DNA from: a virus
Taxonomy: Duplodnaviria > Heunggongvirae > Uroviricota > Caudoviricetes
IMG/VR virus record: IMGVR_UViG_2778261301_000005
DNA: 4,962 nucleotides
Reading direction: 5' to 3' (one strand)
Shown here: positions 1-4,962 of the stretch, piece after piece
Layout of the letters: each line of letters begins with the position of its first letter
Position numbering within the stretch: position 1 is the stretch's first letter
Translations under genes and position numbers: made by a program
The notes under the pieces: model-generated
What the model was told of the DNA's origin: nothing
What the model saw: only the letters and a program-made list of their open reading frames with translations
Database searches by the model: none

Positions 1-310
1 TATCAGAAGTTAGATTGTAATAATTGGTATAAGCTGAAATTGACTTCTGGCATGCTTCAAGAAATTCCTGTGGATTCATTCCTAGTCTTGCTTGCTCTGT
101 GGTCAGAAAACGCTGTAAGAACTCATCTCCGCCAGGCATTTTTGTTGATTCTTGAAATGTTGCCATTTGTTTGATTGTGCCGCACATGCCAGCAAATTTC
201 GAAGTTATCATGAGTTCTTGCAGGCCTTTAAGATCGCCATTATCTGATTTTGGTTTGGCGAAAACTATTGTAGAGAAGAACAATATTAACAAAATAGCGA
301 TACGTTTCAT
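1..310 (-). CDS. Hypothetical secreted protein, 5' portion only (start at 308-310 on minus strand, ORF runs off the left edge, 103 codons visible)
   Basis: Manual minus-strand translation from the ATG (reverse complement of 308-310) gives MKRIAILLILFFSTIVFAKPKSDNGDLKGLQELMITSKFAGMCGTIKQMATFQESTKMPGGDEFLQRFLTTEQARLGMNPQEFLEACQKSISAYTNYYNLTSD with no stop down to position 1. The N-terminus has the shape of a Sec signal peptide (KR, hydrophobic core, VFA-K candidate cleavage site, no lipobox Cys). The ATG overlaps the mnt stop codon (ATGA overlap). An open frame of 310 nt is notable in AT-rich DNA. Absent from the ORF track, presumably because its stop lies outside the window. Confidence 0.55.
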   Translation of the reverse strand, partial: MKRIAILLILFFSTIVFAKPKSDNGDLKGLQELMITSKFAGMCGTIKQMATFQESTKMPGGDEFLQRFLTTEQARLGMNPQEFLEACQKSISAYTNYYNLTSD

Positions 311-558
311 TTTTCACTGTTGCCATGCATAGATTTTAATTTCTCAACCTCATGCTCAAGCTCTATCAACCGCGATGCTATAGTTGCAAGATCTAGTGCT
401 TGAATATGTTTATTTTTTTCAGTCCATGCCTCAAGTGCTGCTACCATCTCAGCATTTAATGAACGAGAATTAGCCTCAGCCAGTTCAATAAGACGTTCCT
501 TTATCTCTACAGGAAGCCTCAGATTCACTTGAGGGTTTTTGTACTTACGATCAGACAT
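307..558 (-). CDS. mnt: Mnt-like ribbon-helix-helix transcriptional repressor (83 aa)
   Basis: ORF-track protein MSDRKYKNPQVNLRLPVEIKERLIELAEANSRSLNAEMVAALEAW... Its N-terminal motif NLRLPVEIKERL...AEANSRSLNAEM closely parallels P22 Mnt (NFRMPMEVREKL...AEANGRSMNSEL, recalled from memory); the C-terminal half is coiled-coil-like, as in the Mnt tetramerisation domain. Same length as P22 Mnt (83 aa), and divergent from an Arc-like gene as in P22 immI. A possible SD (AGGA) lies about 7 nt upstream of the ATG on the minus strand. Confidence 0.85.
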   Translation of the reverse strand: MSDRKYKNPQVNLRLPVEIKERLIELAEANSRSLNAEMVAALEAWTEKNKHIQALDLATIASRLIELEHEVEKLKSMHGNSEK

Positions 559-663: not shown

Positions 664-804
664 ATGAAGGTAAAAACACTGCGTATGCCAGAGAAGCTAG
701 AAAAAATTCTTGAAGAAAAAGCAAAGGAAGAGTGTCGCTCATTCAGCGCAGAAGTAATTAAACGGGTGCTTGACAGCCTGAAGAGAGAGGGGATTACGGT
801 ATGA
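664..804 (+). CDS. arc: Arc-like ribbon-helix-helix repressor (46 aa); not in the supplied ORF track
   Basis: Manual translation: [46 protein letters not shown]. The motif LRMPEKLEKILEEKAKEECRSFSAEVIKRVLDSLKREG aligns position by position with P22 Arc (LRWPREVLDLVRKVAEENGRSVNSEIYQRVMESFKKEG, recalled from memory). A strong SD (GGAGGA at 654-659) lies 4 nt before the ATG at 664. The stop TGA (802-804) overlaps the next ATG (801-803). Confidence 0.85.
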   Translation: MKVKTLRMPEKLEKILEEKAKEECRSFSAEVIKRVLDSLKREGITV

Positions 805-1070
805 AGGTGTCATTGCTTGATCGTTCTTTACAATTTTTGTCTGGCGCAATCATTGTAGTTTGCTTGCTCGTGATTTTTACATCGTTAATCAATATGTATC
901 AATCAGGGGAACGATTGACAAAGACGATAGAGGAAAAAAAATCAGTCTCAAATTACGAAGTATCACATGCACATAACGATTTAGTAGAAAGCCTTGACCG
1001 TATTAACAAGAGGCTTGACGAGACAAATATGCTACTTAAGCAAATTCAAAATGAAGTGGAAAAACGTTGA
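801..1070 (+). CDS. Small hypothetical membrane protein (89 aa): one predicted N-terminal transmembrane helix, then a charged coiled-coil-like tail
   Basis: ORF-track protein; hydrophobic stretch [20 protein letters not shown] (about aa 14-33) followed by a K/E-rich heptad-like tail ([24 protein letters not shown]). Start overlaps the arc stop and its own stop overlaps a TTG at 1067, suggesting an operon. No family recognised. Confidence 0.55.
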
Positions 1071-1132
1071 AGCCCCAACTGCTGGAACAGTCAGGGCTTC
1101 GGTATCAACAAAACTTACGAGGTATTATTGAT

Positions 1133-2023
1133 ATGTCAAGCTTAGCAAAGTCAACTGTAAATTGCACTAATAGCATCATCATTTCTGACGTCAAGATTCA
1201 TATGGATTCAGAGGGGCGTTACTCGCTTAATGACCTCCATGTAGCGTCTGGGAAGGAGGAAAAACATCAGCCAGCTTTCTTCATGCGTAGAAATGAAACT
1301 ATTGAATTGATTAATGAAATTTTTAATTCTGCGGATATGCAGAATAAGAATCCCGTCCTTTCTAAGAAAGGTCGATATGGTGGAACCTACGTGTGCAAGG
1401 AGCTTGTTTACTCCTACGCCATGTGGATTAGCGCAGCCTTTGCGCTGAAGGTTATCCGTGCATATGACGCAATGGTTACTGCCACACAAGAGAGGAAGGC
1501 TATTGGAGGTAAAACTTCAGTAGCTGAACGCACACCGCTACGCGATGCAGTAAACATGCTGGTAGGAAAGAAAGGACTTCGCTATGACGATGCATACAAT
1601 ATGGTTCATCAGCGTTTTGGTATTGACAGCATTGATGAACTTTCAATTGAACAAATCCCGCTTGCCGTAGAGTACATCCACAGGGTAGTGCTTGAAGGCG
1701 AGTTCATCGGCAAACAAGAGAAGAAAACCAACGAGCTTTCTGCAAAAGAAGCAAACAGCCTTGTATGGTTATGGGATTATGCCAACCGCTCTCAGGCATT
1801 ATTCCGCGAATTGTATCCGGCGCTAAAACAAATTCAATCGAACTATTCCGGAAGATGCTACGACTACGGTCATGAGTTCTCGTATATTATCGGAATGGCG
1901 AGAGATGTTTTAATCAATCACACACGAGATGTTGATATTAATGAGCCAGACGGACCAACGAATCTTTCCGCATGGATGAGACTTAAGAATAAAGAATTAC
2001 CTCCTTCAGTACATAACTACTGA
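1133..2023 (+). CDS. KilA-N domain protein with a C-terminal region of unknown family; candidate antirepressor-like or Kil-like protein in the position ant occupies in P22
   Basis: ORF-track frame 1067..2023. The N-terminal region carries the KilA-N signature: [14 protein letters not shown] ... [35 protein letters not shown]. Preferred start is ATG 1133 (in frame, GAGG at 1119-1122 upstream); the alternative is TTG 1067, which overlaps the upstream stop. The C-terminal ~170 aa has no family I can recognise. Confidence 0.75.
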
Positions 2024-2041
2024 CAGATAACCAACGCAACG

Positions 2042-2066
2042 ACCCAGCTTCGGCTGGGTTTTTTTA
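2042..2066 (+). terminator. Rho-independent terminator: 7-bp stem ACCCAGC/GCTGGGT, TTCG loop, then a T7 run
   Basis: Stem 2042-2048 pairs perfectly with 2053-2059, the loop TTCG (2049-2052) is a UUCG-type tetraloop, and a T-run follows at 2059-2065. It sits 19 nt after the KilA-N gene stop (2021-2023), analogous to the terminator after ant in P22. Confidence 0.8.
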
Positions 2067-2123: not shown

Positions 2124-4364
2124 ATGACAGATTCAATAAATGCCAATGTTGTAGTGAGTATGCCTTCGCAACTCTTCACTATGGCTCGTTCTTTTAAAGC
2201 CGTAGCCAATGGCAAAATTTATATCGGTAAAATTGACACTGACCCGGTAAATCCTGAAAACCAGATTCAGGTTTATGTGGAGAACGAAGACGGCTCTCAC
2301 GTTCCTGTTTCTCAACCAATCATCATTAACGCTGCTGGCTACCCTGTATATAACGGACAGATTGCTAAGTTCGTTACTGTACAAGGGCATTCTATGGCTG
2401 TTTATGATGCGTACGGTGCTCAGCAGTTCTATTTTTCGAATGTGCTGAAGTATGACCCTGACCAACTCAGGCAAGATCTTGCATCTCAAGGAGGTGTTAA
2501 TCTGGTAAACGGAGCTATCTCACAGGAAGATCTTGTTTTGCAGTCGATCACAAAAATTCCAAGTTATGATAATTCTAACGTAGTCCAGGCGTGGCGCGAT
2601 AGTGTTGCGACCTACGGGTATGTTTACTTCTCTAATCATTCAAAAAATCAGATGGTGTACACCGTACCGTCTACAGCTGCTAACGCTTCTTTCCTTGCGA
2701 ACAGTAAAGTAATCATTGATAAAAATGTCACCCTGAGATTCGACAGTGATCTGTACTCACTGTTTAAATCGTTGCAGTACGAGGGGGATGGTACGTTTGA
2801 ATTTACGCACCTGAACTTTAAAGCAACCGGTGGAGAAGTGGATTATCTGGCTAAGCAGGCTATCCTCAACCGAAACCCTATTCGCATGAAGCGAGTGGAA
2901 TGGTCAGATTGTAAAGTTTATTCCATAAATGGTGACACGTTCTTCTATGAAGGTGAAGTCACCATATCCTCAGATAGCGCAGCTATCTTCCCCTTAACTA
3001 CTGACCGTACAACAGGCCTGTTCGCACCAATAGATATTGGAGAGCATATTTCTGCACATATTCGCATGGAATCTCAGGCCGCCTCAGAAGTTGGGATTGT
3101 TTTGCGATGCTCTGGAGGTTGGATGATGTTCTATGGGGCACCAGGTGCTACACAGTGGTCTTATAGACAGAAACCAATTGGTGGTCCAGTAGCAGAAGGA
3201 ACTCCATTCCCGCTGCCAGGAGGTTTACTGTCGTACGCCCCGGGCAAAGCAACCGTTGGCGTATCACTGCAAGGTAAAAACTGGGCGCAGATAACGATGA
3301 ATGGCGTTGGGATACGTTTGCCCTTTGATACTGCTGATGTAGGGGATGTATACGAAGTTGGGTTTGTTGCACTGACCACGGCATCTGGAGGTTCTGCGCG
3401 TGTAACTGGATTATGCAGCTACACCTCTGATAATGGAGTGCACGGTAAGCCTCCACTTAATATCCTTATCCACGGTGATAGTACAGCTGAGGATTTCATT
3501 TCCGCGTTCAGCTCGTACATTCCGCAATTAATGGATGGAGCGAACGGCCACCGTTCACATAGCATTGTAAACAAGGCAGTTGCCGGACAGACAATGAGGC
3601 AACAGTTAGATCTCCTGAAGGCTCAGGGGCCGGGTGATGCTTACATCGTTATTATGGTTGCCGGAACTAACGAAGGGCAGGCAAACCAAAACGGCGATTA
3701 TATGGCGTCATTGATAGATGAGTTTGTCTTATATTGCAATGGCCTTGGTCGTATCCCTGTTTGGGTTGAGCCGTGGATGTGGTATAGCCAGTCATTTATT
3801 GGAGGGGCTGGCCAGCCATCTTCTAACTACGACGGTGTCGCAGAGTTGCGAGAAGCTGGTAAACGCCAGATGATGAAATATGGCAATAACGTCATTTGTG
3901 TAACAACAACTCACCAGCTCCCGGCCCCATATCCAGAGTATTTCAATACGCAATACGACCCACTTCTGCGTGATGACATTCACCAAAGCCAGTTAGGGTA
4001 TCGTCTGTATGCGGAAATTATCTGCTCTGCCATTATCGACTGGTGGTCGCGTGTTGATTACACGCCAAGAGCAGCTGTTCAATGGTGGGCTGGAACAAAC
4101 GTAACAGTACAGGAACCGTCAAGTTTAACTGCCAATTCAATTAATATTAAACTGGCAGCCACTTCATTTGCGAATGGCAATACTGTTCTAACGCTTCCGA
4201 GATGGTGCAGACCAAAAGTAACCAAAAATGTCCCTGTACCGTTCACTGCTGATGACGTTTCATTTGGCATGGCAATGGCTACCATTAATGCTTCAACAGG
4301 ACAAATATCGATTGAAGGGTCCACAACTACATCTCCAACGTTCTACATAGATGCGACATGGTAG
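2124..4364 (+). CDS. Tailspike protein (746 aa): P22 gp9-type N-terminal head-binding domain fused to a receptor-binding body containing an SGNH/GDSL-type hydrolase (predicted polysaccharide esterase/deacetylase) domain
   Basis: The N-terminal ~115 aa ([12 protein letters not shown]...[38 protein letters not shown]...[17 protein letters not shown]...NVLKYDPDQ) is near-identical in pattern to the P22 tailspike head-binding domain (recalled). SGNH motifs in canonical order: block [14 protein letters not shown] (G451-D452-S453, nt 3474-3482), block II VAGQT (G488), block III GTNE (G514-x-N516, nt 3663-3674), block [17 protein letters not shown] (D617-x-x-H620, nt 3972-3983). SD GGAG at 2112-2115. 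Confidence 0.9.
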
Positions 4365-4569: not shown

Positions 4570-4583
4570 TCACTCCACCTTTT
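4562..4583 (+). terminator. Hairpin AAGGTGG-gtcact-CCACCTT followed by TTTT, overlapping the integrase stop codon; possible plus-strand terminator or RNA-processing structure
   Basis: Stem 4562-4568 pairs with 4575-4581, and T's run from 4580 to 4583. The T-run is short and partly inside the stem, so terminator strength is uncertain. Confidence 0.3.
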
Positions 4584-4962
4584 CATCAAGCCAATCAGCC
4601 CACCACTGCATCATTTCTCTGCGCTTATCCAGATACTGAGCATGGTTGTAAATCCCGCGCACAGATCCGCCGTTGGCATGTGCCAGTTGCACTTCAATGG
4701 CGTCAGCAGGCCATTCGTGCTCGTTCATAATTGTGCTGAATTCATGCCTGAATCCGTGACCGCTTTCCAGACCCTCATAGCCGATTTGTTTGATCACAAG
4801 CAATACCGCGTTCTCGCAGATTGGCTTTTTCTTATCGTTGCGCCCGGCAAAAACAAACTCTGATACTGGTTTGGTGATTGAGCTTTGAACCGCCCCGGGA
4901 ATCCTGGAGACTAAACTTCCTGAGAAAGAGGTAAACAGGATGACTAAAAATACTCGTTTTTC
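4570..4962 (-). CDS. int: Tyrosine recombinase / phage integrase, C-terminal part only (5' end beyond the right edge); P4-type C-terminal signature
   Basis: Minus-strand frame open from 4962 down to stop TGA (reverse complement of 4570-4572). The C-terminus GHGFRHEFSTIMNEHEWPADAIEVQLAHANGGSVRGIYNHAQYLDKRREMMQWWADWLDEKVE has the H-x-x-R box, a conserved Tyr region and the MMQWWADYLD-like tail typical of P4-family integrases (recalled). The ORF track lists only the TTG-initiated tail 4570..4803; I extended the frame by hand to the window edge. Confidence 0.8.
   Translation of the reverse strand, partial: EKRVFLVILFTSFSGSLVSRIPGAVQSSITKPVSEFVFAGRNDKKKPICENAVLLVIKQIGYEGLESGHGFRHEFSTIMNEHEWPADAIEVQLAHANGGSVRGIYNHAQYLDKRREMMQWWADWLDEKVE

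Follow-up and report, generated by a model that had tools for sequence, protein, structure and literature searches.

The stretch of viral DNA analysed here (4,962 nucleotides, called the window below) very probably carries a complete immunity-I operon of the P22 type, the "ant moron" of a P22-like, E. coli-type prophage, in which a mosaic ant gene is preceded by an independent cassette, ORF89. The immunity I region of P22 (mnt, arc, sar, ant) is said to go back to Sauer et al. 1983. Villafane et al. 2008 gave the name "ant moron" to the stretch that separates gene 16 from the tailspike gene; they distinguished ten types of it in sixteen genomes and described it as hypervariable (PMC2629481). 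Three arrangements place the window in this group: divergent Arc-family repressor genes flank a shared promoter region, sar lies opposite the ribosome-binding site of ant, and ant is directly followed by a terminator and then by the tailspike gene. Judged from the sequence, all the parts of P22 immI are present, because sar was found between ORF89 and ant. The features are as follows.

2-310, minus strand: 103-codon open reading frame (six-frame ORF list), its start overlapping the mnt stop
307-558, minus strand: mnt-type ribbon-helix-helix repressor gene, 83 aa (Pfam Arc PF03869, E 2.7e-10; position and orientation of P22 mnt)
559-663: putative divergent promoter/operator region, 105 bp (consensus scan and repeat search)
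664-804, plus strand: arc-type repressor gene, 46 aa, apparently a heteroimmune allele (Pfam Arc, E 3.7e-8)
801-1070, plus strand: ORF89, 89 codons (phrog_27312, ATGA overlap, transmembrane segment, AlphaFold2 helix), followed by a 62-bp spacer before the ant ATG at 1133
1131-1065, minus strand: sar antisense RNA gene (Rfam RF00262), including the terminator hairpin at 1100-1069
1139-1147, minus strand: candidate extended -10 of Psar, TGC-TAAGCT, inside ant codons 3-5
1133-2023, plus strand: ant, 296 aa, with KilA-N at residues 19-114 (nt 1187-1474) and a P22-type C-terminal half at residues 127-296, containing P22_AR_C at residues 196-268 (nt 1718-1936)
2041-2060, plus strand: intrinsic terminator (hairpin and T-run) after ant (terminator search)
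2124-4364, plus strand: tailspike gene, 746 codons (Pfam Head_binding, E 2.5e-65; P22 head-binding domain)
4570-4803, minus strand: integrase remnant, 77 codons
From about 4886: end of an IS3-family (IS629-like) element

Much of this layout had been recognised in the original prediction, made from the letters alone. Its divergent mnt/arc pair stands, both proteins matching Pfam Arc, as does its terminator ahead of the tailspike gene, found at 2041-2060 and annotated at the equivalent place in Emek and epsilon34; the tailspike has the P22 head-binding domain. The 89-aa single-pass membrane protein is borne out by a hydrophobic stretch at residues 12-30 and a single AlphaFold2 helix, and the KilA-N-domain protein by a match to PF04383 (residues 19-114, E 4e-19). 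The tailspike gene marks the right boundary of the ant moron. The window as a whole is found in no complete E. coli genome, the best match covering 65% of it; 1194 E. coli genomes match some part of a query spanning 560-2123. Because the integrase is cut by the IS element, which truncates it, the setting of this particular copy may be a decaying prophage.

In P22, Mnt represses Pant in lysogens and Arc shuts it off soon after infection. A summary of this double repression is available (PMC2629481). In the window, a consensus scan of the region between the two repressor genes gives a candidate Pant, TTGACT-17-TACTAT, at 605-633 on the plus strand and a candidate Pmnt, TTGATA-17-TATCCT, at 615-587 on the minus strand, two sigma-70-like divergent promoters overlapping at 587-633. 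A repeat search adds two inverted repeats, 591-608/612-629 and 633-638/646-651, as candidate operators. The sequence of this operator region is unlike the P22 operators, with no recognisable similarity, and the beta-strand residues of Arc differ from those of P22 Arc: with arc and mnt alleles and operators all different, this immI would be heteroimmune with respect to P22. Because the operators are not recognisably P22-like, we infer control of Pant by Arc and Mnt from position alone. Working as their P22 counterparts do, Pant, beside mnt, would transcribe arc, then orf89, then ant; in a lysogen Mnt would hold it off, by analogy with P22, and Arc would close it minutes after infection. The terminator search found no plus-strand terminator between arc and ant, which agrees with the earlier proposal that the two genes after arc are transcribed from its promoter, a matter of prediction here as well.

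The spacer between ORF89 and ant is the sar locus. Rfam RF00262 matches it with 62.5 bits against a gathering threshold of 43 (E 1.3e-11), all model positions from 1 to 68 being covered, and a minus-strand terminator is called at its hairpin, GAAGCCC...GGGCTTC. This hairpin is essentially identical in P22, Emek and EC.P3, only two loop positions out of 32 nt being different. The RNA is predicted to fold into the two-hairpin shape of P22 sar, with a 5' hairpin that differs in sequence, and the fold energies of the two RNAs are -30.4 and -30.2 kcal/mol, with z about -6 for both (-6.1 for the RNA of the window). By RNA-seq coordinates, the 5' end of P22 sar coincides with the start codon of ant (PMC13397905). 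Codons 3-5 of both P22-type and Bro-N-type ants contain an extended -10, TGC-TATACT; the KilA-N type has TGC-TAAGCT at the equivalent position, likewise 38 nt away from the hairpin, and the hairpin together with the first ant codons carrying TGCTAxxCT is kept across all Ant types. The conserved position of this candidate Psar in the KilA-N type argues that the swap of the N-terminal domain starts just downstream of the sar promoter, leaving the antisense unit preserved. Made leftward from a promoter in the first ant codons, the 67-nt sar would pair with the ribosome-binding site of ant and block translation of Ant. As a candidate -10, TAAGCT is weaker than the TATACT of P22.

Between arc and sar lies ORF89. 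Its start overlaps the arc stop as ATGA and is preceded by a Shine-Dalgarno sequence, GGGGA. The product has a single strong hydrophobic segment (residues 12-30, mean Kyte-Doolittle 2.79), and its AlphaFold2 model is one helix from residue 5 to residue 88 (pLDDT 81): it is predicted to cross the inner membrane once and to end in a long helical tail. The flanking charges leave its membrane topology ambiguous. ORF89 has a PHROG family of its own, phrog_27312, of unknown function (E 6.5e-61), and it is rare, being present in 14 of 5426 complete E. coli genomes, in 2 of 50,697 phage records and in 6 metagenome loci; there is no relative in 185,579 species representative genomes. A search of 5.8 billion proteins returned only close relatives and fragments, together with a few truncated or chimeric predicted proteins, and an exhaustive HMMER search of 1.84 billion representatives gave only 4 matches, one of them a new and divergent homologue. 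The latter, P0009 (83 aa; 48% identity by HMMER, 46% in the alignment), sits in the arc-X-ant slot of another P22-like phage, and no relative was detectable outside the arc-sar slot. All 14 of the full-length DNA copies retrieved are intact, and close variants show 7 synonymous changes and 1 non-synonymous change. Compared with a 91% homologue (L131) pN/pS is 0.31, and dN/dS is 0.52 against the divergent one (L125), while the transmembrane segment and a membrane-adjacent SGERLT.TIE motif are invariant among the homologues. By this pattern of substitution and conservation, ORF89 is a genuine protein-coding gene under purifying selection. An internal promoter-like match at 915-942 is not clearly conserved in homologues and was not adopted.

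What such a protein might do has to be approached through its position and the timing that this implies. Searches of PADLOC (at E <= 1) and NCBIfam gave 0 matches; in Pfam, DUF1664 and DUF948 reach about 16 bits, below their cut-offs of 35-37; a PDB profile search returned only non-significant coiled-coil matches (E >= 0.017), and Foldseek found no match to the model in BFVD, a lone helix giving meaningless fold matches. In view of the ATGA overlap, translation of orf89 would be coupled to that of arc. With no plus-strand terminator from arc to ant and with Pant controlled as in P22, a short early burst is expected: ORF89 would appear when Pant fires, early in infection or on loss of Mnt, possibly also by late read-through, and a resting lysogen would not make it. 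Such timing speaks against an exclusion gene of the classical kind, expressed from a prophage, and favours a function in the newly infected cell. Our best guess, held with low confidence, is that ORF89 acts briefly at the membrane of a cell that has just been infected.

T4 Imm is a small early membrane protein that blocks entry of the DNA of a second phage. The most likely version of our guess, by analogy and still rather doubtful, is that ORF89 may act in the same way, transiently and at the inner membrane. A kil-type or otherwise toxic membrane protein directed at the host (an inhibitor of division or of membrane integrity, for example), or an abortive-infection effector, would be nearly as likely as an exclusion factor, and nothing separates the two. 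This second reading, unlikely in itself, agrees with a small single-pass membrane protein ending in a helical tail, with a promoter tightly shut in lysogens, as a harmful product would need, and with a rarity (14/5426 genomes) that fits an accessory function. Against it, ORF89 resembles no known toxin, holin, Kil or defence protein, and hhalign found no profile similarity to E. coli FtsB, a protein with the same layout of a transmembrane segment followed by a coiled coil (probability 0.15%, given as 0.1 in the summary row; E 0.39, over 7 aligned columns). An FtsB/FtsL-like protein was rejected.

The gene that follows is where the original prediction went astray. It had stated that the gene after arc was not a P22-type Ant, ant having been replaced, and that the C-terminal ~170 aa of the KilA-N protein could not be assigned. 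A single Pfam scan finds KilA-N (PF04383) at residues 19-114 (E 4.3e-19) and P22_AR_C (PF10548) at residues 196-268 (E 6e-30). BLASTP aligns residues 127-296 with residues 131-300 of P22 Ant (147/170 identities, 86%), and at the DNA level positions 1652-2092 of the window are 90.9% identical to P22 ant. The N-terminal ~125 aa are the only part that differs in type from P22 Ant: P22_AR_N (PF10547), which the Ants of P22 and CUS-3 do match, has no Pfam match here, KilA-N standing in its place, and ANT/KilAC (PF03374) is absent among the Pfam matches at E <= 0.1. The start was set at ATG 1133, with GAGG nine bases upstream, in preference to the mechanically listed TTG 1067, which was rejected. 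A PDB sequence search with Ant gave nothing significant, and its single-sequence AlphaFold2 model was unusable (pLDDT 39.8).

By its domains and alignments, this protein is a domain-swapped homologue of P22 Ant rather than a full-length orthologue. The Ants of P22 and CUS-3 combine P22_AR_N with P22_AR_C, and that of EC.P3 combines Bro-N with P22_AR_C. Among 110 ant genes adjoining the conserved hairpin, 70 have P22_AR_N, 31 Bro-N and 8 KilA-N, with 1 unclassed, and the C-terminal half is common to all but one of them. KilA-N is one of at least three interchangeable N-terminal modules of a mosaic protein; in E. coli it is found in 34 complete genomes. Bro-N, KilA-N and P22_AR domains have been grouped in a domain-swapping "Bro network", with Iyer et al. 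2002 cited (PMC10111431). Selection on both halves of ant is strongly purifying, with a pN/pS of 0.07 against Emek (0.13 for the N-terminal part, 0.05 for the C-terminal part) and of 0.19 against P22 for the C-terminal half.

By analogy, Ant most likely acts like P22 Ant, binding and inactivating the primary (C2-type) repressor. Could the fusion of KilA-N to P22_AR_C have changed job, and now regulate transcription or kill the host instead of acting as an antirepressor? Many phages have KilA-N relatives that carry the label of DNA-binding protein or transcriptional regulator (phrog_129), and the annotators of Emek, whose Ant is nearly the same protein (293/296 identical, 99%) and is annotated "ant: antirepressor", had doubts about its function, since the record marks the gene "(Defective?)". 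The name given by the NCBI pipeline to the E. coli copies is "P22AR C-terminal domain-containing protein". Yet both halves are under the purifying selection just described (pN/pS 0.13 and 0.05), and arc, mnt, sar and the terminator are all retained, as in the control apparatus of P22, which makes a change of job improbable.

The relationship between ORF89 and Ant was examined in a survey of the arc-sar slot that brought together 120 viral contigs with the hairpin, reference loci and the window, 125 loci in all. In 62 of them the gene that runs up to the hairpin is that of Arc; it is ORF89 in 8, a small CxxC...CxxC zinc-finger-like protein in 26 (one of which matches Pfam zf-C4_ClpX, 4e-11), the Emek orf73 type in 7 and an 80-aa type in 2, 20 loci having no called gene. 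In this survey, ORF89 is partnered by a Bro-N Ant in 3 loci, a KilA-N Ant in 2 and a P22_AR_N Ant in 2. It also occurs with three DNA-binding types of Arc, always through an arc ending in ..DSLKREG(I/V).V, and shows no linkage to the neighbouring 103-aa ORF. KilA-N Ants, for their part, are also seen immediately after Arc, or after cargo of the zinc-finger or orf73 kind. Found with three types of Ant N-terminus and three types of Arc, ORF89 therefore moves independently of the Ant N-domain, as a moron cassette in its own right that extends from the last arc codons to the sar hairpin; between these two points the cassette recombined in. ORF89 is not a functional partner of the KilA-N domain, because it occurs with all three types of Ant N-domain.

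None of the genes carried in the slot has a functional annotation in the records examined, and the copies of ORF89 in EC.P3 and in E. coli prophages are annotated as hypothetical protein only. A broader proposal can be offered tentatively. The slot may be a dedicated cargo site of P22-like phages for interchangeable small genes, each expressed alongside Arc during the short pulse of immediate-early transcription from Pant. ORF89 would then be a membrane effector that had escaped notice, and might, for example, act in exclusion, block division or modulate a membrane protease. If this were true, ORF89 would influence the outcome of infection or the choice between lysis and lysogeny.

The original prediction had seen the two proteins as one functional module, a new two-gene cargo that would have replaced ant and in which the membrane protein and the KilA-N protein would act jointly, under immI control, in an alternative form of antirepression, in a kil function or in abortive infection. 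Both genes do follow arc on a single strand, and no plus-strand terminator intervenes; the N-terminal domain does resemble that of P1 KilA (38.7% identity), and one related record (SJ46) describes P1 kilA as coding for a putative host-killing protein. However, the C-terminal 170 aa belong to P22 Ant, sar and its target site are kept in front of ant, ORF89 is as frequent with P22_AR_N and Bro-N Ants as with KilA-N Ants, KilA-N Ants also occur right after Arc or after zinc-finger or orf73 cargo, and in complete E. coli genomes the KilA-N module (34) outnumbers ORF89 (14). As the parts assort independently, ORF89 occurring with P22_AR_N, Bro-N and KilA-N Ants alike, the module is largely refuted and the idea now seems very improbable. 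The prediction had named what would weigh against it: a large protein that proved to be an Ant, and an ORF89 absent or disrupted in close relatives. The Ant homology was found (99% to Emek Ant) and ORF89 is absent from most relatives, but it is never disrupted among the full-length DNA copies retrieved.

It is hardly credible, finally, that ORF89 is a frame left open by chance in filler DNA that separates arc from the sar terminator: it is an ORFan, with 4 HMMER matches in 1.84 billion representatives and none in 185,579 species representative genomes, but all 14 DNA copies are intact with mostly synonymous substitutions, a 46-48% homologue keeps the frame, the transmembrane segment, the SGERLT.TIE motif and the slot, and the gene has a Shine-Dalgarno sequence, an ATGA overlap with arc and its own PHROG family.

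The window is then one more mosaic of a known region: its arc and mnt alleles are heteroimmune, its ant allele is of the known KilA-N type, and its moron is rare and hypothetical. In this reading of a P22-type operon, immI is built of exchangeable parts, with joints at the 3' end of arc, at the sar hairpin and promoter, and at an Ant boundary near residue 126. The sar element stays intact across three Ant N-domains, and this suggests that the C-terminal half and its antisense control form the constant core, while the slot upstream of sar gathers unrelated tiny genes, ORF89 and ClpX zinc-finger-like proteins among them. All this changes phage biology little, and leaves a single uncharacterised part, the rare ORF89.

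How does this region compare with known systems? The most distant parallel is T4 Imm and its kin. No sequence or profile similarity to ORF89 was found for these proteins; they are, however, small and membrane-anchored as ORF89 is, and predicted expression immediately after infection would be a common trait. P1 KilA shares the KilA-N domain with Ant (38.7% over about 110 aa) but ends in KilAC/ANT where Ant has P22_AR_C, and its context and regulation differ. Escherichia phage EC.P3 (PQ657771) encodes an identical ORF89 protein, located after arc as here, yet the N-terminal domain of its Ant is Bro-N. About 14 E. coli prophages, such as that of APEC O2-211, have ORF89 DNA 98.6-100% identical to that of the window, again in the slot after arc. 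Emek (vB_SemP_Emek; AFM54341, JQ806763) differs in its arc and mnt alleles and in having an unrelated ORF of 73 aa between arc and sar, whereas its Ant (99%, 293/296), combining KilA-N with P22_AR_C, its sar hairpin and its terminator are as in the window. With respect to P22 immI itself, the window has other arc and mnt alleles and operators, KilA-N in place of P22_AR_N, an extra 89-codon gene between arc and sar, and, instead of sieA, a 103-aa secreted-type ORF beside mnt. By contrast, the gene order and orientation, the divergent ribbon-helix-helix repressors, the sar terminator hairpin (2 loop differences in 32 nt), the C-terminal half of Ant (86%) and the terminator followed by the tailspike gene are those of P22.

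The slot between arc and sar, held in this immI region by ORF89 (the gene of an 89-aa single-pass membrane protein), carries different small genes elsewhere among P22-like phages, as seen in viral contigs carrying the sar hairpin (L005-L124), where the position directly upstream of that hairpin was read. At 26 loci of these contigs the occupant is a ClpX C4 zinc-finger-like protein of 60-74 aa, one of which matches PF06689 (4e-11), and further occupants are of a 73-aa type, as in Salmonella phage vB_SemP_Emek, and of an 80-aa type. Under control of Pant, the promoter of the arc operon, a free ClpX zinc-finger domain could have ClpXP substrate choice as its target.

Two elements may bear on the expression of ant, downstream of ORF89:

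1065-1131 (-), sar antisense RNA gene between ORF89 and ant (Rfam RF00262, 62.5 bits)
915-942 (+), sigma-70-like match TTGACA-16-AAAAAT (10/12) within ORF89, directed toward ant

The sar gene, which the original prediction did not list, extends with its 3' tail into the end of ORF89, across that gene's final codon and stop codon. The -35 of the sigma-70-like match lies in the conserved GERLT codons of ORF89; its -10 is not clearly conserved in two homologues, one divergent (L125) and one 91% identical (L131). Were this match active, ant transcription would be independent of Arc and Mnt, with only sar restraining it.

Beyond ant, the window contains:

2124-4364 (+), tailspike gene, with a P22 head-binding domain (residues 4-114)
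4570-4803 (-), integrase remnant, C-terminal 77 aa, within 4570-4962
from ATG 4939, transposase ORF of an IS3-family (IS629-like) element

No glycanase is recognisable in the tailspike, which has in its stead an SGNH/GDSL-esterase-like part with motifs HGDSTAE and DDIH, scoring just 19.6 bits against Pfam Lipase_GDSL_2, under the cut-off; the protein may deacetylate O-antigen. The intS-like sequence stops at about 4885, where the IS element starts, and excision of the prophage is probably no longer possible.

At the other end of immI, comparison with P22 involves the following features:

2-310 (-), 103-aa ORF (phrog_19844), N-terminus signal-peptide-like (MKRIAILLILFFSTIVFA...)
598-618 and 619-639, 21-nt direct repeat
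591-608 and 612-629, 18-nt imperfect inverted repeat
633-651, 6-7-6 palindrome, TGTATG-N7-CATACA

The start of the 103-aa ORF overlaps the mnt stop (ATGA), so a lysogen would transcribe it together with mnt; in other loci, this ORF and ORF89 are not linked. In P22, roughly this position is held by sieA and orf59. The three repeats, all in the promoter region (591-651), occupy a position equivalent to that of P22 Oarc and Omnt, yet their sequences are unrelated, which implies an immI specificity different from that of P22.
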